Below, in pieces: positions 6,463 to 61,195 of a stretch of 64,000 nucleotides of DNA. Made by a program: the position numbers and the translations under genes. Position 1 is the stretch's first letter. The number at the start of each line of letters is the position of its first letter. This DNA is from Squalus acanthias. Its lineage: Eukaryota. The DNA is taken from NCBI GenBank assembly GCA_030390025.1, contig CM059432.1:8494001-8558000 (forward strand). The letters are read 5' to 3'. The notes below the pieces were generated by a model that was given only the letters and a program-made list of their open reading frames with translations, made no database searches and was not told the DNA's origin.

Positions 6463-6514
6463 TTTGCTCCTGCATCTTCTGAGCATTCTCAGACCACTGT
6501 GCTTCTAATCCTTA

Positions 6515-6887
6515 TGATGTGGAGATGCCGGTGTTGGACTGGGGTGGACAAATGTGAGAAGTCGCACGACACCAGGTTATAGTCCAACAGCTTTATTTGA
6601 AATCACAAGCTTTCGGAGCGCTGCTATCGTCTTTGATGTAATGTCTTCCTGACTGACCTGGTTGGACACCATCCACACCTTTGATTGCCGTGATTGTCTC
6701 TCTGCCGAGGTGTGATAAAGGGCAGTTAGAAAGATTAACTGTAATCATCTGGCAGTGTTCTCTGACTATATATGCTGTGCCTATATGCATCTCTTCACTT
6801 CACCTGACGAAGGAGCAGCGCTCTGAAAGCTTGTGATTTCAAATAAAGCTGTTGGACTATAACCTGGTGTTGTGCGACTTCTCACTT
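6515..6887. mobile_element. Penelope-like element terminus with an inverted (fold-back) structure
   Basis: 6515-6630 is the minus-strand pLTR end and 6630-6887 the plus-strand copy; flanked by direct repeat ctaatcct[t/c]a (6505-6514 / 6888-6897). Confidence 0.85.
6800..6836 (+). ncRNA. Minimal type I hammerhead ribozyme (PLE-associated)
   Basis: TCAC-CTGACGA-A-GGAGC-agc-GCTCT-GAAA-GCTT-GTGA: CUGANGA and GAAA cores, stem II, palindromic AAGCTT at stem III, stem I TCAC/GTGA. Confidence 0.75.
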
Positions 6888-7709
6888 CTAATCCTCAGCA
6901 CTGCAGTGCTCCCGCATTGCCCCTTTCTTCCCCACAGAATACTGACAGACCCCATTCTCTAGCCCCCTCCACTCCCTTGCATTACGTTTCTCTTCCTCGT
7001 GCCTCCTAGCCATGGGGATTATCTCCACACTTTCTCTCAGCTGCATCACTTCCCGGACAGTCCTTCCTTAACTGTATCTCCCTCCAGATTGGTACACTCG
7101 ATTTACAAGCTTGCACTTTATTCTGGGTCTTTAAGAAAGACATAAGACATATTAAGTGGCTACATAGGCAAAAAGGAATTTATAATAAATCAAGGCCGCT
7201 GAGTTACAGTTTTCAGGGAAAAATGCCCAGAATCATCGAATTAGATCTCAAAATATTGATTAAAAATGTCAGAAAATGCAATTTCACTTATCCAGTCAGA
7301 GTAAATCACTGTTTATGCTAATATATTGTGCATTATGTAATATAACAGTCCGATCATTAGAAAATGGCACATCCTCGGACTTACTATGAGCAATAACATG
7401 GAGGTCCTCAGGAGTTGGGCCAGGATTTGCTGTCCAAAATAACGGCAAGGCCAATGGCGTTCGCTGAAAGACTGGCAAACACATCGCTTGAATGTATCAA
7501 TAAGTGCAAGTATAAATTCAAGGTTCCCAGAGTTGCAATGTAGCTAACGTAAGAGGTTGATATCAAGCAACACAGACACACATTTGTTTAAGAACTCATG
7601 AACCTTTGAATGTTCCCTATATATCATATAACGAAAATCTTGTGCTTTGTGATATAATTAATTCAAAGGCACCTTCAGTCTTTTCTCGAGCCTATACAAT
7701 ACATTTACT

Positions 7710-14650: not shown

Positions 14651-14670
14651 CTCTGTGATACAAAAACATA

Positions 14671-15010
14671 ATTGAGAGGTCGCACAACACCAGGTTATAG
14701 TCCAACAGTTTTATTTGAAATCACAAGCTTTCGGAGCTATCGATCGCCCCTTCCTCAGGTGAAGTAGTAAAGAAATACAGACTCGCCAAAGCATATATAG
14801 ATAGAGAACAATGCATGTGTACCTTACAATTGCAGACAACTAAATTAAATCATCCTGACTATCTGCCGAGGTGTGATAAAGTTAATCAGGTTAGCCAGGA
14901 AGGTACCACATCAAAGACATAGCAAGATACAACTGAGACAATGAGGTGGAGTCGCAGGGGGTCTAACGTGTCAAAAGCTGCCGTCTGTATGTAAAACGAT
15001 AAGCTGTAAA
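14671..15010 (-). mobile_element. Penelope-like pLTR fragment (subfamily 2) with hammerhead at 14721-14762
   Basis: Minus strand reads TCAC-CTGAGGA-A-GGGGC-gatcgata-GCTCC-GAAA-GCTT-GTGA; near-identical to 60630-60965. Confidence 0.8.
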
Positions 15011-15099
15011 AAAAATTTGAATAAAAACATTGTCATCCTTCTACCAGTCTGTGTTCACTATTTATTCTCTTTACATTTTTCATATTATTAAAAATCTAT

Positions 15100-16682: not shown

Positions 16683-17429
16683 GGGCTGGATTTTTGATAC
16701 TGGGGCGGGTTGGGGTCGTGTCATCCGCATTTCGTGTTATCCACCCGACTGCAATTGGATGTGGGAGATTGATGCAATTTTCACCTAATTGGGCAATTGA
16801 GTTCCAGCATGTGAGAACCCATGAACCAATTAGTGGTTTCAGTCTGAAAGTCGCCTCTGATGATGTCATCATTACTGCTGCATTGAAGGTCCTCAGAGAC
16901 TGCCTGGCTTTTGCTGTGAGAGGACCTGGATGCAAAATGAGCAGCATCTCTATCTAGAGAGAGAGAGAGAGAGAGAATTTTTTTTGCATCAAGGTCCTCT
17001 CACAGCAAAGGCCAGGCAGACTCTGAAGACATTCAATGCAGCAGCATCAGAGGCGACTTTCAGACCTAATACTACTACTACCTTCATCACATCTCCGTTG
17101 TAATAGTGGACCTGCAGCTGATAGTCAGCTATCCACTTGTGCTCCCGCCAGGTTTCACTGGCGTGTTTCAGATCAGGCGTGCTTCACGTGGGAAAAGGGT
17201 TAAACTAGCTAAAACTTTTCAAAATGGTATTACAGAGCCAATTTAGGGCTTGTTAAGGGCTTTAATGGCCTCTTGGAGGCGGGTCGGAGACGGGACCACC
17301 ACACACGATTTCATCAAAATTGCGTGGAGGCGGAATGGAGGCGGGATTGGGTCCGCCCGCCACTTTTCGCAATTTTAACCCCCCACACGCCTCCAAACCC
17401 GCCTCCACGGGTCTTTGAAAATCCAACCC
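16683..17429 (+). mobile_element. Non-autonomous Harbinger, deletion-type relative of the 25014-29218 element
   Basis: TIRs GGGCTGGATTTT...AAAATCCAACCC; TSD TTA/ATA; both subterminal regions align by eye to the ends of the 4.2-kb element. Confidence 0.8.
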
Positions 17430-24215: not shown

Positions 24216-25670
24216 ATATCATACTGTAAAAAAAAACACTGGATATACGGAAATGAGAGCAAGGCTAGCAGTTCATTTCTGGATTAGGTTGATGATTTCT
24301 GAATCAAAGATCGATTTACTATCCAGTAATCACAACCATATACCCATTAGCTTTTCTTTTGACAGACACAGCTTGTTATCTCTAAGTACCTTATGGTGTT
24401 AAGTAATATCTGCGTAACGTTATTTTTTTTTTTAAAAAAGCTTGTATCCTGAAGGGTCGCCTTCAAGAGATGCAATGTGACTCCAGTGTTATATTTTACA
24501 GCCTTTGTGCCTCATCATTGGAGGATAATAAGAACCGGGAGTCTCTGAGCAGAGTCTGTTTCACTCCCGTTGGGTAATTATTGGATGTTATTCAGCACTT
24601 CTGCAAAAAAGATCATATTTTCTCTGCTCATTATTACTTAATATAGCTTGTGAAAATTTGATTCTGTGAAAGAGCAAAGAAGTTATTTAAAAGGTCACGT
24701 CAGAGCTGCTTAGTTCCATTTTAAAATGTCGTGCACTACCATAAACTGAAATGTTCAACTTCCTGAAGAGCGCTTGTAATACTATTTCACGAGGTGTGCT
24801 GTTGCACCAGTCAGCAGCTGATCCCTTGTTATCCCAGGTAACTATCTCGTTATCAGATGATATGATCAGCACAGTGCCACGAATGCAATTCCTGGCACTT
24901 GTAACACTGATGCACACTGGTTTCTGGTTAAGGTACAGATCAGCCATGATCTAATTGAATGGTGGAGCAGGCTCGAGGGGCTGAATTGTCCAGCATGCTC
25001 CTAGGTAGATTTCAGGCTGGATTTTGTCAGTGTGGGCGGGCTGGGGCGTGTCAGGTGGAAATTGTGCCAGGACCCCGACTCCGAAGAGATGTGTTGAAAA
25101 AGTGGGATTTTCCCCTAATTGGGCAATTGATTTCCTGCGTGTGGGAACCACTGGCCCAATGAGTCTTTTCATACAGAAAGTCGCCTCCGATGACGTCATC
25201 AATGCTGTTGGATTTAAGGCCTGCAAGCAGCCTTGATTCTTCTGGAGACTGGAAACGCTTTGGACATTTTATGAAGGACTTCATTTACCGACCATGTCCA
25301 CCAGCAAGCAAAAGTGTGCACCTCGCTTTGATGAGCCCTCCCTCCAAGCTCTGCTTGAGGGAGCAAGATCTAATAAGGAGGTGCTCTTCCCTTCCTCAGG
25401 GAGAAAAAAGCCACCACAACAGACTAAAGCTGTGTGGCTGCAAGTGGCCCAGGAGGTCAATGCCATCTCTATGTGCCGCAGAACCTGGCTGCAGTGCAGG
25501 AAGAGGTTTCATGACCTTCTCCACACAGGAAAAGTGAGTATGACTTTCCCATCACCCTCAATCTGATCCCCATCGCCTCTCCTCACCAGCACTCAGCTTT
25601 GGCAACCTCTTCCTCCACATCCCACTTTACACTGACATCCCTGCACCCTTACCCATTCCCTCTCTCTCTA

Positions 25671-26129
25671 TGTGAGAAGTCGCACAACACCAGGTTATAG
25701 TCCAACAGTTTTATTTGAAATCACAAGCTTTCGGAGCGCTGCTCCATCGTCAGGTGAAGTGAAGAGATGCATATAGGCACAGCATATATAGTCAGAGAAC
25801 ACTGCCAGATGATTACAGTTAATCTTTCTAACTGTCCTTTATCACACCTCGGCAGAGAGATAATCACGACAATCAAAGGTGTGGATGGTGTCCAAACAGG
25901 TCAGACAGGAAAACATTACATCAAAGACAATGAGGTGGGGTCACAAGGGGTCAATGTGGCAGATGCTGGGGTCTGTATGGAAAACAAAAAACTTTTTTTG
26001 CTGGAAATCACAGCCGGTCCGGCCGCATCTGTGTCGAGAGAACAAGCCAATGACGACTCGAGTCTGGATGACTCTACGTCAGGTGGGGTTACATGTAGCG
26101 TGACATGAACCCAAGATCCCGGTTGAGGC
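25671..26129 (-). mobile_element. Penelope-like element 3' end in intron 1 of the Myb gene; hammerhead at 25721-25757
   Basis: Minus strand encodes GLNRDLGFMSRYM* (GIY-YIG C-terminus) followed by the pLTR with CTGACGA..GAAAGCTT; TSD ctctctatg. Confidence 0.85.
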
Positions 26130-27694: not shown

Positions 27695-29362
27695 GAGGAG
27701 CTTAGTCGCCAGGGTATGGAAAACATGGTAATTGTTCAGAATAGACTGACATCTCTTGAGGAGCGATGTTCAGCTATTGAGCAAACAAACCAGACCTTCA
27801 TGCAAGTCCTCTGGAGTAGGACTTCCAGTGCAGAAACGGGTCCTCATGGCCCCCCTGCAGTGCAGCAAGGTGCTGTCCAGCCACTTGCTAGCTCTGAAGT
27901 GGGGCTGACCCATGAGAGGGATGTTGGTGGCAGACAACAAGGAAGTGGGGGCTCCTCTCCAAGCGCTCACATGACCATGCCACTGCAGAGCCCTTGGTCA
28001 GAGCCCCACCAGAGTCCCCACCCAACTGCAGGAGCAGCAGACTGTTGCCGAGCCCTCACAGGTTCGCAACCCCAGAGGACACCCGCCAAAGGTGTCGAGA
28101 CAGGAGCAGCAAGAAAGTGAGCAAGGGGCCTCCACATCTGCTGAAGCCACAGGGGAAGCACCACGTAGGAACATGCGTAAGAGGAAGATAATTCACAAGT
28201 AGTCACAAGGGTAGTCACTTGGGTGTAATGTTGTGTTTAATTTTGAAAAACCATCAGTTGCTTATTGTCATAAAAAATTCTGATGGCAAACTGTTGCAGT
28301 TGTGGCGTGTGTCATTTCGCTAATGGGACTTCCACATTGAGGGCTTAGGGCGACTTGAAATTGTCAGTATGGTGGTCAGAGTGATAGGAATCTGCAGGTT
28401 CTTGGCCATTGTCGATGGTCTGATAAGAAGGTGCGAGGCAAAAGTGTTTGATTGAGCAGGCTAAGCAAATCTGGCCAAGATAAGTGCGTCCTTTGCAACC
28501 CGGGCAGCAATGTGGTCGCGTGCTGGTGCCTTCTGGCCTGTGCAGCTTCAGGTGGGTGAGCAGCAGCTTGGCGCTCCTGTTGTTGCTGCTGCTGTTGGTG
28601 GTGCTGTTGTTCATGGTTCTGCTGCTGCCACGGCTGGTCTTCGTCCGAATGTGATGTCCAGGAGGAAAGGAAATAAATGGTTCCCATGCTTCTGGTATAT
28701 GCCTCAGTTGAGGAAGCGCTCAGTCAAGTTGGCGAGAGGGGTTTCCCAGGAGGTCACACTGGAGATGGTTGTCAGGCTCCAAACTTCCACAACAATGTGT
28801 AGGCCTGCTAAAAGTTTCCCCAGACCTGAGACAACAAAGTTCTGCCACCTGCAAATGATGATTGCTGAAAACTCCTTTTTAATGGTGGAGCTGCAGCTGT
28901 TAGTAAGCAGTCCACTTGTGAGGCCCCCAGGATTCACTGGCGTGTTCCAGAGGAGACGTGCAGGACGTGGGAAAAGTGGTAATTTCAGAAAGGCCTCTCA
29001 AAATGGGTTTATAGAGACACTTAACTGGTTGTTAAGGGCCTTAATGGCCTATCCCGCCTCTTGGAGGCAGGATGGAAACGGGGTCAGAAAACACGCATTT
29101 GGGAAAATTGCTCGGAGGCGGGATGGAGGTGGGATCGGGCCTGCCCGCCATTTTTTTGCAATTTTACTACCTCACACGCCTCCAATCCCGCCTCCTCGGG
29201 CCTGGTAAAATCGAGCCCGTAGTGTCTGAAGGGCAGCACGTCTGGACTGGAACTTCTCTATCCTCCACTGTGTGCTCAGGTCCTCCCACAACCCAAAAAA
29301 TGAGGAGGGGGCCACCCATACCCACACCCAACTCCATGTTCACCCAGAATTCAGGGACCAAC

Positions 29363-29912
29363 TTCCCACCATCTACAAGGCACAAGTAAGGAGTGTCATG
29401 GAATACTCTCCACTTGCCTGGATGAGTGCAGCTCCAACAACACTCAAGAAGCTCGACACCATCCAGGACAAAGCAGCCCGTTTGATTGGCACCCCATCCA
29501 CCACCTTAAACATTCACTCCCTCCACCACCGGCGTACCGTGGCTGCAGTGTGTACCATCTACAAGATGCACTGCAGCAACTCGCCAAGGCTTCTTCGGCA
29601 GCACGTCCCAAATCCGCGACCTCTTTCACCTAGAAAGACAAGGGCAGCAGGCGCATGGGAACACCACCACCTCCAAGTTCCCCTCCAAGTCACACACCAT
29701 CCTGACTTAGAAGTACATCGCCGATCCTTCATCGTCGCTGGGTCAAAATCCTGGAACTCCCTCCCTAACAGCACTGTGGGAGCACCTTCACCACACGGAC
29801 TGCAGCGGTTCAAGAAAGCAGCTCACCACCACCTTCTCAAGGGCAACTAGGGATGGGCAATAAATGCTGGCCTTGCCAGCGACGCCCATATCCCATAAGC
29901 GAATAAAAAAAA
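29363..29912 (+). mobile_element. LINE-X 3' end
   Basis: TIYKAQVRSVMEYSPLAW...FKKAAHHHLLKGN*; A-tail. Confidence 0.85.
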
Positions 29913-30571
29913 TACTTGCGAGGACTGCGTGGAGCATCGTTTGAACCTTGCATCTCCTGACTTCAAGGTGGGAATGCTACCACTAGTTCAAAGGCTCACT
30001 CCTGAGTTGAAGGCGTCGGGGTGGGAGAAGAGAAGGGACATTGCATGTTGCAAGCACAGTGCAAACCTGATAGTTGGTCACTTTATTTGTAAGTTTCTTT
30101 CTGAAGCAAGAAACAAATGAAAAAGGTTATCTTTCATCAACTGCAAAAACCGGCAGCTAAACCTCATCTCTCACATTCTGCTGAACATATATTTGTGCTG
30201 AGTACTTGGGCTCTTAGTTATGAGGAGAGATTCACAGAAATAAGGAAGAAAGATTTGCATTTATATAGTGCAGTTCCCAAAATGTCTCACAGCCAATGAA
30301 GTGTAGTCACTGTTGTAATGTAGGAAATGCAGCATCCAATTTGCGCACAGCAAGCTCCCACAAACAGCAATGTGATAATTGCCAGATCATCTGTTTTATT
30401 GCTGTTGGTTGAGGGATAAATATTGGCCAGGACACCAGGGGAGAACTCCCCTGCTCTTCTTCCTACTGTGCTATGATCTATTATGATGCGGAGATGCCGG
30501 TGTTGGACTGGGGTGGACAAAAGTGAGAAGTCGCACAACACCAGGTTATAGTCCAACAGTTTTATTTGAAA

Positions 30572-30608
30572 TCACAAGCTTTCGGAGCGCTGCTCCTTCG
30601 TCAGGTGA
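30572..30608 (-). ncRNA. Minimal hammerhead ribozyme
   Basis: Minus strand reads TCACCTGACGAAGGAGCAGCGCTCCGAAAGCTTGTGA. Confidence 0.8.
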
Positions 30609-30639
30609 AGTGAAGAAAATCTTCACTTTTTTCTTCACT

Positions 30640-30676
30640 TCACCTGACGAAGGAGCAGCGCTCCGAAAGCTTGTGA
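30640..30676 (+). ncRNA. Minimal hammerhead ribozyme
   Basis: TCACCTGACGAAGGAGCAGCGCTCCGAAAGCTTGTGA with intact cores and stems. Confidence 0.8.
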
Positions 30677-31374
30677 TTTCAAATAAAGCTGTTGGACTAT
30701 AACCTGGTGTTGTGCGGCTTCTCACTTATGATCTATTATGTCCACCTGAAAGGGCAGACAGGGTCTTGGTTCAACATCTCATCCGAAAGACGGTGCAGTT
30801 CTCCCTGAGTAAGGCACTGGATTACGTACTCAAGTCTCTGGAGTGCGACTCTGAACCCACAACCTTCTGATTCAGAGGCAAGAGTGCTACCAACTGAGCC
30901 ACGGCTGACACTTTGACCTGAATTTCATTGGAGAAAAAAAAAATGAAAGGAGGCATAATCCAAGTCTTGAAAACATTGATGCAGAGGTAATCAAGGGTTT
31001 ATTCAGCGCTCCAGTGCTCCCAGGAGATAGTCTTGCTTGATGGGAGAGCGAGTCAGTGAATTGGCACCACAGTGGTGTAGCCCTATCTTTGAGGCAAGCT
31101 TCCATCAAGGAGGCTTGGCAAGGGGAGCGCTGGATCATTGAATTTACCACACAGGCTGTGACCATAGAATGGGAGGGCACAATTAACAAACCTCAAAAGA
31201 GAGTAGAAATTAAACAAAACTTTTTTCCCCCACATAATACTGGATGATTACAATCAACTCTCAGCAAAAGGACTGACTTCAACTCGATTAATTGCTTCAA
31301 AAAGGAACTGAATCAATATCTGGGGGGAAAATTGCTCCGTTGCTATGTGTATTGACATCATAAATGTGTTGATT

Positions 31375-32716
31375 AAATTTTTTTTTTCCGTTCCTGAGAT
31401 GTGGGCGTCGCTGGCAAGGCCAGCATTTATTGCCCATTCATAATTGCCCTTGAGAAGGTGGTGGTGAGCCGCCTTCTTGAACCGCTGCAGTCCGTGTGGT
31501 GAAGGTACTCCCACAGTGCTGTTAGGGAGGGAGTTCCAGGATTTTGACCCAGCGACGATGAAGGATCGGCAATATATTTCCAAGTCAGGATGGTGTGTGA
31601 CTTGGAGGGGGTGATGTTCCCATGTGCCTGCTCCCCTTGTCCTCGGTGGTAGAGGTTGTGGGTTTTGGAGGTGTTGTCGAAGAAGCCTTGGCGAGTTGCT
31701 GCAATGCATCTTGTAGATGGTACACACTGCAGCCACGGTACACCGGTGCTGAAGGGAGTGAATGTTTAAGGTGGTGGATGGGGTGCCGATCAAGCGGGCT
31801 GCTTTGTCCTTTGTCGAGCTTCTTGAGTGTTGTTGGAGCTGCACTGATCCAGGCAAGTGGAGAGTATTCCATCACACTCCTTACTTGTGCCTTGTAGATG
31901 GTGGAAAGGCTTTGGGGAGTCAGGAGGTGAGACACTCGCCGCAGAATACCCAGCCTCTGACCTGCTCTTGTAGCCACAGTAATTATGTGGTTGGTCCAGT
32001 TAGGTTTCTGGTCAATGGTGACCCCCAGGATGTTGATGGTGGGGGATTCAATGATGGTAATGCCATTGAATGTCAAGGGGATGTGGTTAGAATTCTTCTT
32101 GTGGGAAATGGTCATTGCCTGGCACTTGTGTGGCGTGAATGTTACTTGTTACGTATCAGCCCAAGCCTGAATGTCGTCCAGGTCTTGCTGCATGCGGGCA
32201 TGGACTGCTTCATTATCTGAGGAGTACGAATGGAACTGAATACTGTGCAGTCACAGAACAGAAGAATCCCCACAATGCAGATAGAGGCCATTTCGGCCCA
32301 TCAAGCCTGCACCGACACTTATCCCACCCTATCCCCGTAACCCCACGTATTTAATCCCCCTAACACTAAGGGTCAATTTATCATAGCCAAATCAACCTAA
32401 CCCGCACATCTTTGGACTGTGGGAGGAAACCGGAGCACCCGGAGGAAACCCACGCTGACACGGGGAGAATGTGCAAACTCCACACAGACAGTCACCCGAG
32501 GCCGGATTCGAACCCGGGTCCCTGGCGCTGTGCGGCAACAGTGCTAACCACAATGCCACCGTGTTGTCATCAGCGAACATCCCCATTTATGACCTTATGA
32601 TGGAGGGAAGGTCATTGATGAAGCAGCTGAAGATTTTTGGGCCTAGGCCACTGCTCTGAGGAACCACTGCAGCAATGTCCTGGGGCTGAGATGATTGACC
32701 TCCAACAACCACAACT
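31375..32716 (-). mobile_element. LINE-X RT fragment interrupted by an HE1 SINE
   Basis: GMFADD at the 32563-32586 junction; INILGVTIDQKPNW; TIYKAQVRSVMEY. Confidence 0.85.
32254..32566 (-). mobile_element. HE1-like V-SINE, full length
   Basis: A-box tggcattgtggttagc, B-box ggttcgaatcc, V-domain gtgtggagtttgcacattctccccgtg...gggtttcctccgggtgctccggtttcctccca. Confidence 0.9.
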
Positions 32717-40477: not shown

Positions 40478-42232
40478 AGAACTTAAGAACATAAGAAATA
40501 GGAGCAGGAGTAGGCCATTCGGCCCTTCGAGTCTGCTCCGCCATTCAATGAGATCATGGCTGATCTTCTGCCTCAACTCCATTCACTGGCCCTATCGCCA
40601 TATCCCTTGATGCCCTTACTAGTCAGAAATCTATCGACTTCTGTTTTGAATATACCCAATGACTGAGCCTCCACAGCCCTCTGGGGTAGAGAATTCCAAA
40701 GATTCATCACCCTCTGTGTGAAGAAATTTCTTCTCATCTCAGTCCTGAATGGCCTACCCTTTATCCTGAGGCTGTGGCCCCTGGTTCTAGACTCCCCAGC
40801 CAAGGGAAACATTCTCCCAGCATCCACCCTATCAAGCCCTGTAATAATTTTGTATGCTTCAATGAGATTCCCTCTCATTCTTCTGAATTCAAGAGAATAC
40901 AGGCCTAGTTTACTCAATCTCTTCTCATACGACAGTCCTGCCATCCCAGGAATCAATCTCGTGAACCTTCGTTGCACTCCCTCTGTGGCAAGTATATCCT
41001 TCCTTAGGTAAGGAGACCAAAATTATACACAGTACTCCAGGTGTGGTCTCACCAAGGCCCTATATAATTGGAGTAAAACTTCTTTACTCCTGTACTCAAA
41101 TCCTCTTGTAATGAAGGCCAGCATACCATTTGCCTTCCTAATGGCTTGCTGCACCTGCACATTCACTTTCAGTGACTCATGTACAAGGACACCCAGGTCC
41201 CTTTGAGCATCTGCATTCCCCAATCTTTCACCATTTAGGAAATACTCTGCCTTTCTGTTTTTATCTACCAAAGTGGATAACTTCACATTTATCCACATTA
41301 TAATCCATCTGCCATGTTCTCGCCCACTCACTGAGCCTGTCGAGATCCCTTGAAGCCTCTTCACATCCTCTTCGCAACTGAAACTGCCACCTAGCTTTGT
41401 GTCATCAGCAAATTTGAAAATGTTACATTTAGTCCACTCATCCAAATCATTGATATAGATTGTGAATAGCTGGGGCCCAAGCATCGATCCTTGCGGTACC
41501 CCACTAGTCACAGCCTGCCATCCTGAAAAAGACCCGTTTATCCCTACTCTTTGTTTTCTGTCTGTTAACCAATTTTCAATCCATGTTAGTATATTACCAC
41601 CAATTCCATGTGCCCTAATTTTGTTCACCAACCTCTTGTGTGGGACCTTATCGAAGGCCTTCTGAAAATCCAAATACGCCACATTTACCGGTTCCCCTTT
41701 GTCTACTCCACTAGTTACATCCTCAAAGAACTCCAATAGGCTTGTCAAACAGGACTTCCCTTTCATAAATCCATGTTGACTCTTCCCAATATTACTATTA
41801 GTTTCTAAGTGCCCAGTTATTGCATCCTTTATAAAAGATTCCAGCATTTTCCCAACTACTGATGTGAGGCTAACAGGTCTGTAGTTCCCCGTTTTCTCTC
41901 TCCCTCCTTTCTTAAATAGCAGGGTTACATTTGCTATCCTCCAATCTGCAGGAACCGTTCCAGAATCTATAGAATTTTGGAAGATGACAACCAATGCGTA
42001 CGCTATCCCAATTGTCACCTCTTTCAAAACCCTAGGATGTAGATCATCCGGTCCTTGGGATTTATCGACTTTTAGTCCCATTAATTTTGCTAGTGCTGTT
42101 TTTTTACTAATAATAATTTCTTTAAGTTTCTCATTCTCGCCACACCCTTGGTTTTCTCATATTTCTGGGAGGTTTTTTGTATCTTCCTCCGTGAAGACAG
42201 AAACAAAGTATTTATTTAATTTCTCCCCCATG
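40478..42232 (-). mobile_element. 5'-truncated CR1 LINE (RT); a further CR1 tail lies at 40172-40325
   Basis: ORFs 41023-42081 and 40573-40977: YLDFQKAFDKV, GVPQGSMLGP, FADDTKL. Confidence 0.95.
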
Positions 42233-51180: not shown

Positions 51181-51943
51181 GGGGCAGAAATTCGGGTCTC
51201 CACGGGTGAGTACGTGCTGTGTACTCACCCGTAGACCCAACGAAAGTGCCGGTTTCGCACATGCACTGTGCATGCGCTGGAAACCGGAACTTCCGTTCCC
51301 TTGAAGGAAGGGGTTCGGAGGTCAAACGTGTGCGCCGGAGAGGCAGCGCGCACGCAGCGAACTTCGGTTTTTTTGCAGGTTTTGAAGTGAGGGTAAGTCC
51401 CTGGCAGCTGCGCGGGGAAAAAGCAGGCGCAAGGCCTGCTTTTAACAAGGTAAGTGGTGAATTAAGTGAAATTTAAACATTTTTTCCACAGGTTTATCTT
51501 TTTTAAATACTTTAAAGAAAGGTAAGTTTACTTTTAGCCCCGTTAAAAACTGTAAATAATTTTTTCAAAAATTTTAAATTTTTGTTTAAAATAGTTAATT
51601 TATGTAATTTATAGTTATTTTAAAAATGTGATGTTTTTTTAAAATTTATTTGAAGTTTTAGTGAGGTTTTGCGGGGTGATCTCTATTCATAGATTTGACA
51701 GGAATCCTGTCAAATCTATGAATGGAGATTCCCTGCTCCGATGGCTCTCCATGGCCCACGTGATCCCAGGGGACGCTTCGAACTAACTGCGCCCCTGGGA
51801 CATGCAAGCACTGTGCGCCGGCAGCTGGTGAAGGCCCAGGACCGGAATCCCACGCAGGCCCACAGCACAATGGCAGGCACGCTAGGTAAGTGAAGGTCGG
51901 GGGCTTGCACCCGCGGGAAGCCTCCGACCCGAATTTCTGGCCC
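51181..51943 (-). mobile_element. Harbinger-type MITE, family C relative (763 bp)
   Basis: TIRs GGGGCAGAAATTCGGGTC...GACCCGAATTTCTGGCCC; TSD ATT/AAT; shares ggtcggaggc.tcccgcggg with 10005-10766. Confidence 0.85.
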
Positions 51944-52365: not shown

Positions 52366-52560
52366 TTGCACGTAAAACTTATGTTTAGATTAGGTGCTTT
52401 TAACATATAACACATATAAACCACTCACTTTTAGGTTAGACATTTTGATACATAAGCTAACATTTATAGATATTACATTGAGCATTAACACATAAACAGC
52501 TAGAAAGACAGAAATGGTCATGTTAAAACTACCCTGAATGAAATCAGTATTTGTAGTGAA

Positions 52561-54087
52561 ATGGTGTTAGGGAAATTGACGGGATTGAAGGCCGATAAAT
52601 CCCCAGGGCCTGATAATCTACATCCTAGGGTACTTAAGGAAGTGGCCCTAGAAATAGTAGATGCATTGCTGGTCATCTTCCAAAATTCTATAGACTCTGG
52701 AACAGTTCCCATGGATTGGAGGGTAGCTAATGTAACCCCACTATTTAAAAAAGGTGGGAGAGAGAAAATGGGGAATTATAGATCGGTAAGCCTGACATCG
52801 GTAGTGGGGAAAATGCTAGAGTCCATTATAAAGGATGTAATAGCAGAGCACTTGGAAAACAGTGACAGGATCGGACAAAGTCAACATGGATTTACAAAAG
52901 GTAAATCATGCTTGACTAATCTACTGGAATTTTTTGAGGATGTAACTGGTAGAATAGATAAGGGAGAACCAGTGGATGTGGTGTATTTGGACTTTCAGAA
53001 GGCTTTCGATAAGGTCCCGCATAAGAGATTAGCGTGCAAAGTTAAAGCACATGGGATTGGGGGTAAGGTACTGACTTGGATAGAGAACTGGTTGGCAGAC
53101 AGGAAGCAAAGAGTTGGAATAAATGGGTCTTTTTCCGAGTGGCAGGCAGTGACTAGTGGGGTACCGCAGGCATCGGTGCTAGGACCCCAGTTATTCACAA
53201 TATATATTAATGATCTAGACGAGGGAACTAGATGTAATATCTCCAAGTTTGCAGATGACACAAAGCTGGGTGGGCGTGTGTGTTGTGAGGAGGATGCAGA
53301 GAAACTCCAGTATGATTTGGACAAGTTGGGTGATTGGGCAGCTGCATGGCAGATGCAGTATAATGTGGATAAATGCGAGGTTATCCACTTTGGTGGCAAA
53401 AACAGGAAGGCAGCTTATTATCTGAACGGCAATAGATTGGGAAAAGGGGAAGTACAACGAGACCTGGGAGTCCTTGTGCACCAGTCGTTGAAGGTAAGCA
53501 TGCAGGTGCAGCAGGCGGTTAAGAAGGCAAATGGTATGTTGGCCTTCATAGCGAGAAGATTCGAGTACAGGAGCAAGGATGTCTTGCTGCAGTTGTATAG
53601 GGCCTTGGTGAGACCACACCTTGAGTATTGTGTGCAGTTTTGGTCACCTTATCTGAGGAAGGATGTTCTTGCCATGGAGGGAGTGCAGCGAAGATTCACC
53701 AGACTGATACCTGGGATGGCAGGAATGACGTATGAAGAGAGATTGAGTCGATTAGACTTATATTCGCTAGAGTTTAGAAGAATGAGAGGGGAACTCATTG
53801 AAACTTATAAAATTCTAACAGGACTAGACAGACTAGATGCAGGAAGGATGTTCCCGATAGCGGGGGAGTCCAGAACCAGGGGTCACAGTCTAAGGATAAG
53901 GGGTAAGCCATTTAGGACTGAGATGAGGAGGAATTTCTTCACCCAGAGAGTGGTGAACCTGTGGAATTCTCTACCACAGAAGGCAGTTGAGGCCAATTCA
54001 TTAAATATATTCAAGAAGGAGTTAGATATATTTCTTAAGGCTAAAGGGATCAAGGGATATGGGGAGAAAGCAGGGACAGGGTACTGA
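52561..54087 (+). CDS. CR1 ORF2 reverse transcriptase, uninterrupted 508-aa C-terminal part of a 5'-truncated copy (element 52541-54188)
   Basis: KSPGPD, NYRSVSLTS, QHGF, YLDFQKAFDKV, GVPQASVLGP, FADD; tail (ttctatgt)n; TSD taccct[g/t]aatg. Confidence 0.95.
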   Translation: MVLGKLTGLKADKSPGPDNLHPRVLKEVALEIVDALLVIFQNSIDSGTVPMDWRVANVTPLFKKGGREKMGNYRSVSLTSVVGKMLESIIKDVIAEHLENSDRIGQSQHGFTKGKSCLTNLLEFFEDVTGRIDKGEPVDVVYLDFQKAFDKVPHKRLACKVKAHGIGGKVLTWIENWLADRKQRVGINGSFSEWQAVTSGVPQASVLGPQLFTIYINDLDEGTRCNISKFADDTKLGGRVCCEEDAEKLQYDLDKLGDWAAAWQMQYNVDKCEVIHFGGKNRKAAYYLNGNRLGKGEVQRDLGVLVHQSLKVSMQVQQAVKKANGMLAFIARRFEYRSKDVLLQLYRALVRPHLEYCVQFWSPYLRKDVLAMEGVQRRFTRLIPGMAGMTYEERLSRLDLYSLEFRRMRGELIETYKILTGLDRLDAGRMFPIAGESRTRGHSLRIRGKPFRTEMRRNFFTQRVVNLWNSLPQKAVEANSLNIFKKELDIFLKAKGIKGYGEKAGTGY

Positions 54088-56709: not shown

Positions 56710-59700
56710 TTGGAGAAGAACTTGGAGTGGGAGGGGGAGGATCCAGTTGTCGTGGTCCACATAGGTACCAACGACATAGCTAGGACAAAGAAAGAGGTTC
56801 TGCTGAGAGAGTTTGAGCAGCTAGGGACTAAATTAAAAAGCAGAACCACAAAGGTAATAATCCCTGGATTATTACCTGAGCCACAAGCAAATTGGCATAA
56901 GGTCAATAGGATCAGGGAGATGAATGCGTGGCTCAAAGATTGGTGTGAGAGAAGTGGGTTTCGATTCGTGGGGCACTGGCACCAGTACTGGGGAAAGAGA
57001 GAGCTGTTCCGTTGGGACGGACTACACCTGAACCATGCTGGGACCAGAGTTCTAGCGAATTGAATAACTAGGGAGGTAGATAGGGCTTTAAACTAAATAA
57101 GTGGGTGGGGGGGGGGGGTCCCGGTGGCGAGAAATTTAGAATGCTAAAGAGAAAAGACAAGGAAGCAGTGCAGGAAAGTGACTGGGGTAAGGATAATCAG
57201 ATTGTGTCAGGAAGGGACAGAGTGTACAAACAAAAGAGTGCACTAACAAATAGGGTCCGGGTAAGAAAAAATGGTAATACGACAAACAGGGCCATAGTAC
57301 AAAAAAATGTTAAGATGTCTAAAAATGTTAAAAAGACAAATCTAAAGGTACTGTATCTGAATGCACGAAGCATTCGTTATAAGGTAAACAAATTAACAGC
57401 ACAAATAGATGTAAATGGATAAGATATAATTGCAATTACGGAGACATGGCTGCAGGGTGACCAGGGCTGGGAGCTGAATATCCAAGGATATTCGATATTA
57501 GGAAGGACAGGCAAAAAGGAAAAGGAGGTGGGGTGGCGTTGTTAGTAAGGATGAAATCAGAGCAATAGTGAGAAAGGATTTTGACTCAGAAAATCAAGAT
57601 GTAGAATCAGTCTGGGTGGAGATAAGAAGCACCAAGGGGCAGAAAACTTTGGTGGGAGTTGTCTATAGGCCTCCAAACAGTAGTGGTAATGTAGGGGATG
57701 GCATCAAACAGGAAATTAGAGAAGCATATAACAAGGGTAGTCCAGTAACCACGGGAGACTTTAATCTACATTTGGACTGGCCAAACCAAATTAGCAATAA
57801 TACTGTGGAGGATGAATTCCTGGAGTGTGTACGAGATGGTTTTTTAGACCAGTACATTGAGGAGCAAACTAGGGAACAGGCTATCCTAGATTGGGTATTG
57901 TGCAATGAGAAGGGGTTAATTAATAATCTTGTGCGGGGTCCTTTAGGGAAGAGTGACCATAACATGATAGAATTCTTCATTAAGATGGAAAGTGAAGAAG
58001 TCAAATCCGAAACTAGGGTCCTAAATCTAAACAAAGGAAACTACAATGGTATGAGGAGTGAGTTGGCTACGATAGATTGGGGAGCTTCATTAAAAGGCAT
58101 GATGGTGGCTAACATTTAAGGAACAAATGCATGAATTGCAGCAGTTATACATTCCTTTCTGGTGCAAAAATACAAAAGGAAAAGCGGCCCAACCATAGCT
58201 AACAAAATAAATTAAGGATAGTATTAGATCCAAAGAGGAGTTATATAAAGTTGCCAGAAAAAGTAGCAAGCCTGAGGATTGGGAGCAGTTTAGAGTTCAG
58301 CAAAAAAGGACCAAGAGATTGATTAAGGGGGGGGGGGGGGGAATAGAGTATGAGAGTAAACTTGCAAGGAACATAAAAGTGGACTGTAAAAGCTTCTACA
58401 AGTATGTAAAAAGAAAAAGATTAGTGAAGACAAATGTAGGTCCCTTACAATCAGAAACGGGAGAATTTATAATGGGGAACAAGGAAATGGCTGAGCAATT
58501 AAACAAATACTTTGGTTCTGTCTTCACGGAAGAGGACACAAATAACTTCCCAGAAATGCGAGGGAACCAAGGGTCTAGTGAGAAGGAGAAATTAAAGGAG
58601 ATTAGTCTTAGTAAAAAAATAGTGCTGGAGAAATTAATGGGACTGAAAGCTGATAAATCCCCAGGGCCTGATAATCTACATCCCAGAGTACTAAAAGAGG
58701 TAGCCGTGGAAATAGTGGATGCATTGGTTGTCATCTTCCAAAATTCTATAGATTATGGAACAGTTCCGGCAGATTGGAGGGTGGCAAATGTAACCCCACT
58801 ATTTAAAAAAAGAGGGAGAGAGAAAACCGGGAACTACAGACCAGTTAGCCTAACATCAGTAGTAGGGAAAATGCTAGAGTCTATTATAAAGGATGTGATA
58901 ACAGGACACTTAGAAAATATCAACAGGATTAGACAAAGTCAACATGGATTTATGAAAGGGAAATCGTGTTTGACAAACCTACTGGAGTTTTTTGAGGATG
59001 TAACTGGTAGAATAGATAAGGGAGAACCAGTGGATGTGGTGTATTTGGATTTTCAGAAGGCCTTTGATAAAGTCCCACATAAGAGGTTAGTGTGCAAAAT
59101 TAAAGCACATGGGATTGGAGGTAATATACTGGCATGGATTGAAAACTGGTTAACAGACAGGAAACAGAGAGTAGGAATAAATGGGTCTTTTTCGGGGTGG
59201 CAGGTGGTGACTAGTACTCCCGAGCTATTCACAATATATATCAATGATTTGGATGAGGGAACCAAATGTAATATTTCCAAGTTTGCTGGCGACACAAAAC
59301 TAGGTGGGATTGTGAGTTGTGAGGAGGATGCAAAGAGGCCTCAAGGCAATTTAGACAAGTTGAGTGAGTGGGCAAATACATAGAAACATAGAAGATAGGA
59401 ACAGGAGTAGGCCATTCGGCCCCTCGAGCCTGCTCCGCCATTCGATGAGATCATGGCTGATCATCCAAACTCAGTACCCTGTACCTGCCTTCTCCCCATA
59501 TCCCTTGATGACAGATGAAGTATAACATGGATAAATGTGAAGTTATCCACTTCGGTAGGAAAAACAGAAAGGTAGAGTATTATTTAAATGGTGATAGATT
59601 GGGAAATGCTGATGTACAAAGGGACCTGGGTGTCCTTGTACACCAGTCACTGAAAGCAAACATGCAGGTGCAGCAAGCAGTTAGGAAGGCAAATGGTATG

Positions 59701-60496: not shown

Positions 60497-61195
60497 GATG
60501 ATGACCAGATAATCTGCTTTAGATTTTGATTGATGGTTAAACATTGGCCAGGACACCGGGGATAACTCCCCTGCTCTTCAAAATAGTGGTCATGATGCGG
60601 AGATGCCGGTGTTGGACTGGGGTGGACAAAATTGAGAGGTCGCACAACACCAGGTTATAGTCCAACAGTTTTATTTGAAATCACAAGCTTTCGGAGCTAT
60701 CGATTGCTCCTTCCTCAGGTGAAGTAAATTAGATACAGAATCGCCAAAGCATATATAGATAGAAAACAAAGCATGTGTACCTTACAATTGCAGACCACTA
60801 AATTAAATCATCCTGACTATCTGCCGAGGTGTGATAAAGTTAATTAAGTCAGCCAGGAAGGTACCACATCAAAGACATAGCAAGATACAACTGAGACAAT
60901 GAGGTGTAGTCGCAGGGGTTCTAACGTGTCAAAAGCTGCCGTCTGTATGTAAAACGAAAAGCTTTAAAATTTTTACTTTTTTACTGGGAGTGCCATAGGA
61001 TCTTTTACAACCACAGACGGGACCGCGGTTTAACATCTCATTCGAAAGACGGCACCTCCGACAGTGCAGCACTCCCTCAGTACTGCACTGGAGTGTCAGC
61101 CTAGATTTTTGTGATCAAGTCTCTGGAGTGGGACTTGAACCCACAATATTCTGACTCAGAGGCGAGGGTGCTACCTGCTGATCCATGGCTGACAC
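60497..61195 (-). mobile_element. DeuSINE interrupted by a PLE (preceded by a CR1 tail at 60340-60496)
   Basis: The SINE breaks at aaatagtggtca and resumes at agtgccataggatc. Confidence 0.85.
60593..60988 (-). mobile_element. Penelope-like pLTR (subfamily 2) with 3' extension; hammerhead at 60681-60722
   Basis: Minus strand reads TCAC-CTGAGGA-A-GGAGC-aatcgata-GCTCC-GAAA-GCTT-GTGA. Confidence 0.85.

Follow-up and report, generated by a model that had tools for sequence, protein, structure and literature searches.

Two truncated Penelope-like ends joined head to head form a hairpin insertion with a putative hammerhead motif in each arm in Squalus acanthias

Introduction

What is a short, nearly self-complementary insert that carries the same hammerhead motif on both strands: an element that replicates as a hairpin, a structure retained for some function, or the residue of another element's integration? 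The question is raised by a locus, here named copy A (30483-30726), that lies within 64,000 nucleotides of Squalus acanthias DNA, the whole of which is referred to as the window. The analysis identifies copy A as two short, heavily 5'-truncated Penelope-like pLTR ends joined head to head in one insertion. It is in all likelihood a dead-on-arrival by-product of integration by an endonuclease-bearing Penelope-like element (EN+ PLE), with no replication or function of its own. Every element of this picture, including the possibility that the hairpin gives rise to siRNAs, has published precedent. Among the papers listed by a literature search on Penelope elements and ribozymes in sharks, none concerned this particular family; Repbase, Dfam and the supplements of the papers cited here may list it.

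Anatomy of the insertion

The left arm (30521-30619, sense on the minus strand) and the inverted right arm (30629-30727, plus strand) are both 5'-truncated pLTR ends and pair over 99 bp with two mismatches, 30531/30717 and 30560/30688, each of which is a G-U pair in the plus-strand RNA. The near-perfect inverted arms of ~99 bp around a 9-nt loop, as given in the preliminary description of the locus, are thereby confirmed. Each arm comprises the same 37-nt minimal type-I hammerhead motif, as also claimed at the outset, the plus-strand motif of the right arm (30640-30676) being the reverse complement of 30572-30608; the latter, on the minus strand, is recognised both by this identity and by a descriptor scan. 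The 9-nt loop (30620-30628) is an exact duplicate of 30632-30640, the nine bases with which the family sequence begins in the right arm, and the reverse complement of 30608-30616; it is a templated junction insert.

The hairpin is real, and the palindrome comprises 207 of the 244 bp rather than the entire insert as first described: the remaining 38-39 bp on the left (30483-30521, minus strand) have no partner and correspond to the Penelope 'tail', an A/C-rich (64%) 3' extension present in this arm only, with the terminus found in copies B and E described below. Because of this unpaired, one-sided tail, copy A is regarded as an ordinary inverted-pLTR insertion. The predicted fold of the plus-strand RNA of 30484-30727 reaches -198 kcal/mol, against a mean of -67 kcal/mol for shuffled sequences (z -27), and none of 200 shuffles was as good.

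A perfect 14-bp direct repeat flanks the insert (30472-30485 and 30727-30740), 3 bp of which are microhomology with the element end. With the terminus common to copies B and E, the insert occupies 30483-30726 (244 bp) between 11-bp target-site duplications (TSDs) at 30472-30482 and 30727-30737, the match of the left copy continuing to 30485 through the microhomology. The 11-bp perfect TSD proposed earlier is upheld in length, its register (30484..30727) being one base off. Matches of at least 14 bp occurred 13 times among up to 20,000 random pairs of search windows of equal size. In addition, the two flanks rejoin as one dispersed repeat, matching paralogue positions 89-255 and 272-466. Since the TSD is longer than expected by chance and the flanks rejoin into one repeat, copy A is a real, single insertion, and the proposal that it integrated as one unit stands.

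The host repeat split by copy A spans 30297-30911, and its family makes up ~7% of the window. The repeat is tentatively labelled SINE-like; ARAGORN returned no tRNA genes. Further out, two LINE fragments (29362-29913 and 31377-31908), inverted to each other and 89% alike over 552 bp, enclose the hairpin, and a read-through RNA across them could form a larger, nested duplex.

Family copies within the window

BLAST of the copy A insert against the 64-kb window revealed four further loci. Copy B (6513-6884, with an 11-bp TSD at 6502-6512 and 6885-6895) is a second head-to-head insertion, displaying a tail arm of ~112 bp that ends inside stem II, a tail-less arm of 260 bp, and a centre that differs from that of copy A. 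The others are single pLTRs on the minus strand, comprising (i) copy C (14670-15022), tail-less, of a sister subfamily, with a probable 8-bp TSD; (ii) copy D (25670-25995), tail-less, for which no TSD was found; and (iii) copy E (60592-60969), tail-bearing, of the sister subfamily, for which no exact TSD was found.

Alignment of the seven arms discloses two fixed outer boundaries. The tail-bearing ends (A-left, B-left and E) share one common terminus (3/3), and the tail-less ends (A-right, B-right, C and D) all stop within ~3 nt of a single boundary located 38-39 nt further in (4/4). The minimal-hammerhead descriptor matches six times in the 64 kb, both strands included, and all six matches fall within family copies. 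Copy A alone has two arms truncated at a common point, a little beyond the hammerhead. One of its two arm differences, 30560/30688, lies at a site that splits the seven family arms 3 to 4.

No PLE open reading frame was recognised by eye among the 21 frames of at least 150 aa in the window, and six-frame reading of the upstream parts of copies B to E revealed no open frame. A 26-nt arm motif gave no match in metagenome contigs and none in viral contigs, and no full-length element with an ORF was recovered. Because no PLE ORF is seen in the window, the link of the family to a reverse transcriptase and endonuclease rests on the cis anatomy. The long open frames at 41023-42156, 52504-54087 and 58211-59383 are presumably, from their translations, CR1-type LINE reverse transcriptases.

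Several further observations concern these copies and their surroundings. In the hammerhead of the sister subfamily (14721-14762 and 60681-60722), position 7 is G and loop II is longer and palindromic, with core and stem I unchanged. Copies C, D and E represent two subfamilies; their 5' starts (~15000, 25985 and 60955) lie behind T-rich runs and nearly coincide, pointing to a defined start of the pLTR ~330-380 bp from its end. A weakly self-complementary stretch, possibly a decayed inverted junction, is reached at the upstream end of copy D (25955-26035). The dispersed repeat that hosts copy A, and that occupies ~7% of the window, contains or borders three of the five copies (A, C and E), and copies A and E fall within ~10-15 bp of the same position in it, where a joint seen in public contigs (30459-30524) adds further tail-less ends; the repeat is a possible insertion hot spot, a post hoc suggestion from small numbers. 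Two palindromes are unrelated to the family: an imperfect one of ~240 bp around an (AG)n run (16823-17065, 75% self-complementary), possibly a decayed MITE, and a near-perfect one of 51 bp (51679-51729, 94%).

Comparison with known systems

The anatomy of copy A agrees with that of published EN+ PLE insertions. The typical PLE insertion described by Craig et al. (2021, PMC8557442) is 5'-truncated, often with an inverted truncated copy at its 5' end and with a 30-40-bp tail that is often found at one end only; those described by Arkhipova et al. (2013, PMC3846280) comprise inverted pLTRs with the tail, TSDs of 8-10 bp and head-to-head palindromes at the junction. The same set of characters is found here: (i) a tail of 38-39 bp at one end only, with fixed boundaries at seven of seven ends; (ii) an inverted, 5'-truncated copy joined head to head in copies A and B, with a palindromic junction; (iii) a short TSD at an AT-rich site, of 11 bp in A and B and probably 8 bp in C, none being found for D and E; and (iv) a hammerhead motif in the pLTR. 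The one-sided tail, inverted pLTR, TSD and hammerhead motif together support the Penelope-like origin originally suggested. Unlike the insertions described in those two papers, copy A consists of two pLTR ends without an ORF, and its equal arms give a near-perfect hairpin of 207 nt.

Poseidon PAc of Anolis carolinensis (Frangieh et al. 2024, PMC11167929) resembles the family in its AT-rich target, its A/C-rich tail, described there as 30-40 bp long, its two fixed 3' boundaries a tail apart, and a hammerhead located upstream of the tail; PAc is a full element tested in vitro. Animal non-LTR retrozymes (bioRxiv 10.64898/2026.07.22.740005) are likewise short, non-coding, hammerhead-bearing and PLE-related. 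They are described as head-to-tail tandems, an arrangement that permits dimer cleavage, whereas the head-to-head arrangement of copy A blocks it. With one sense motif per strand and no head-to-tail tandem units, copy A is not a retrozyme. A viroid-like ambisense circle does not fit either, the computed hammerhead fold being disfavoured by ~69 kcal/mol on both strands and no terminal redundancy being found besides the TSD.

The hammerhead motif and its predicted trapping

The motif comprises a 4-bp stem I, the core, one extra base, a 5-bp stem II and a 2-nt palindromic remnant of stem III, so that the minimal hammerhead with a palindromic stem III named in the preliminary description is recovered as a reading of the motif. 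Its cleavage triplet ends in U, which makes it one of the weaker triplets. At gathering score, Rfam returned no match in the whole window and hence no hammerhead model; the 13 matches in 29500-31800 were all miRNA-precursor models below their gathering scores and were set aside as generic hairpin matches. The ribozyme of copy A, read from the motif only, is therefore putative.

Compared to the minimal hammerhead ribozymes (min-HHRs) of metazoan PLEs defined by Cervera and De la Peña (2014, PMC4209133), the motif is of the same type I and shares the 4-bp stem I, the core, the extra base before stem II and the palindromic stem III. It differs in its stem II, 5 bp against 7-8 bp in the Schistosoma min-HHR, and in the C at position 7 and the final U of the cleavage triplet. 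Dual motifs on opposite strands were already reported in that work, ~100-700 bp apart, whereas those of copy A are only 31 bp apart. As for activity, the same source gives no cleavage of the monomer and low cleavage of the dimer; a review (PMC6765202) relays the results of Lunse et al. on dimer cleavage; and the hammerhead of Anolis PAc is reported to cleave only in the presence of the protein, cleavage not being needed for insertion in vitro (PMC11167929).

Within the hairpin, the putative ribozyme is predicted to be sequestered. Imposing the hammerhead fold (stems I and II) on the full RNA of either strand takes 68.9 kcal/mol, and on an RNA ending at the last base of the ribozyme still ~61-62 kcal/mol, the isolated motif being worth only ~-10 kcal/mol; every hammerhead base has an unpaired probability of at most 0.003. 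In both directions of transcription across copy A the antisense precedes the sense motif, and it is this order, together with the ~69 kcal/mol cost, that argues for sequestration. Moreover, since there is one sense motif per strand, no partner for dimer cleavage is available in cis. An in-silico dimer had its energy minimum in a form paired through stem II and not stem III, a result that weighs neither for nor against dimer cleavage. According to the hairpin folds, the ribozyme is probably trapped and inactive, as a passive result of the inversion. The earlier notion of a self-inhibited ribozyme is borne out as far as folding is concerned, the motif being held by its own antisense in either strand; what falls away is the implied function, of which no sign was found, the trapping being a consequence of the inversion.

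An RNA from copy A would at most be a 99-bp dsRNA substrate, and its role as a dsRNA or siRNA source is plausible by analogy with Penelope in transgenic Drosophila, in which siRNAs map to inverted regions of its copies (PMC3681739). Both the near-perfect 99-bp duplex and this precedent fit a locus that the host has kept, either as an siRNA source that silences the family or as a switch that gates the ribozyme. Such selection is nevertheless very unlikely: the hairpin sits inside a dispersed repeat between LINE fragments, its arms are only 2% apart, as for a young insertion, and similar stumps are numerous.

Junctions in public contigs

Four public contig runs (of 24 listed, all of them contigs), from four studies and three organisms, were aligned to 29950-31250 at 88% likeness. 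Across these runs, the arms reach depths of 10^5 to 10^6, against 2-19 in the unique flanks, and the family is accordingly extremely abundant, contig depth not being equivalent to copy number. Among the 15 joints listed, of 1,272, 14 connect the left arm with the right, no two of them at the same pair of positions, the frame of the alignment showing only junctions shorter than that of copy A; 13 of these 14 recur in at least two studies and seven in a second organism. In the fifteenth, the host repeat leads straight into a tail-less end (30459-30524). Head-to-head joining is common in the family, and its centres are variable. The joint sides are short (18-29 letters), and some joints could be chimeras, arising for example from library fold-back. 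The predicted cleavage position, 30673, is where one of the 14 arm-to-arm junctions restarts; given a 4-letter microhomology there, this was not counted as evidence that truncation occurs at the ribozyme cut.

Long palindromes can be chimeric, and for copy A itself neither the centre nor the empty site is spanned by any of the 32 contig pieces listed, of ~268,000. An assembly or sequencing fold-back artefact is hardly credible even so, as it would have to reproduce a TSD on both sides, flanks that rejoin, a tail on one side, two differences between the arms, and a second example in copy B. The right border (30703-30846) is also present in a contig of flank-level depth (6), which shows 4 differences and includes only 25 letters of the arm; it lends weak support to the assembled structure. 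Flanks orthologous to those of copy A are present in one further organism at ~93-97% identity, in contig pieces that do not bridge them.

The variable centres bear on the proposal that copy A belongs to a distinct palindromic element, a minimal replicating parasite. As the outer ends are fixed and the centres differ between copies A and B and among the contig joints, the inverted half was most likely built at each insertion. A self-contained, non-autonomous hairpin, MITE-like or retrozyme-like and copied as a unit by PLE proteins, would agree with the clean TSD and the intact motifs. Several other arm-to-arm junctions also display summed contig depths of 100-1,200, against ~5.5-19 in unique flanks, and recur across studies and organisms; such depths leave room for junction types present in many copies, with the same proviso that depth is not copy number. 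Non-autonomous PLE derivatives are described (bioRxiv 10.64898/2026.07.22.740005), and in a rotifer pLTRs suffice in trans (PMC3846280). Against such an element, the copy A junction occurs once in the 64 kb, the sole other inverted copy has a different centre, and the 14 arm-to-arm junctions listed are all different. Furthermore, only one side regains the unpaired tail, as happens in fresh insertions, and the PAc template, as reported, needed RNA well past the start sites (the first 172 nt of the ORF; PMC11167929), which a copy ending at the tail lacks. The proposal is on these grounds not sustained, a hairpin element of this kind being quite improbable. Equally slim is the chance of a broader version, in which some arm-to-arm junctions, possibly including that of copy A, have been amplified as units, as minimal hairpin PLE derivatives mobilised in trans that bring their own antisense with them and also supply dsRNA against the parent family throughout the genome.

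Proposed mechanism of integration

Within the by-product reading, priming from both sides of the target is the probable route, and copying of a folded-back cDNA a possible, lesser one. By analogy with Anolis PAc, an element protein would nick both strands of the AT-rich site ~11 nt apart, and each nick would prime reverse transcription, one at the outer start site, keeping the tail, and the other at a start site ~39 nt further in, producing the tail-less end. The two cDNAs of copy A would both stop a few bases past the hammerhead and, once truncated, would be joined with a short templated slip, the 9-nt loop, leaving the hairpin as a by-product. In the PAc system, both target strands are reported to be cut and extended, and the tail lies between two reverse transcription start sites; the later steps of PLE integration are described there as still unvalidated (PMC11167929). 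Two-sided priming is favoured because it explains the TSD, the restriction of the tail to one side and the shifting position of the centre.

Several features of copy A would also follow if a single cDNA had folded back on itself, slipped once to give the 9-nt loop, and been copied up to the tail boundary, where the endonuclease would resolve the product. The complementarity of the loop to 30608-30616 allows a local 10-bp snap-back (-10.5 kcal/mol), the two arms have the same length and a common starting base, and beside the loop they share three bases that are absent from copies B and D. The shared bases and the snap-back loop suit fold-back at least as well as two-sided priming; in addition, self-priming has been proposed for head-to-head PLE palindromes (PMC3846280). 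Such fold-back cannot, however, generate copy B, where neither arm contains the other, the left arm having the tail and the right arm ~190 bp more of upstream sequence. Neither is therefore a simple copy of the other, and copy B requires two primings or something like them. Moreover, the arms of copy A differ at a family-polymorphic site, albeit one site only. Fold-back copying is, for copy A, possible and the less probable of the two routes.

The same difference, 30560/30688, suggests that copy A may derive from two templates, as judged from a single site where the arms carry different family variants. ADAR editing was considered as the origin of both arm differences, which read as A-to-G on the plus strand of the right arm, and was rejected: the sites are only two, and one of them is a family variant. 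More generally, there is about an even chance that stumps whose arms disagree by subfamily preserve a record of two RNA templates used in one integration, and this is likelier than amplification of the junctions as units.

Implications

As a single locus, copy A matters little, since truncated Penelope-like insertions are very numerous; its modest value, as a mechanistic snapshot, is that of a sample from a large natural data set. If transcribed inside introns, such hairpins would readily supply dsRNA against the family, as for Penelope in Drosophila (PMC3681739). In short inverted stumps the outer ends are fixed, the centres vary and the arms sometimes differ, so that such stumps can separate two-sided priming from fold-back by sequence alone, and the two-template record, if true, would have a direct bearing on the second-strand step, as yet unresolved, of PLE transposition.
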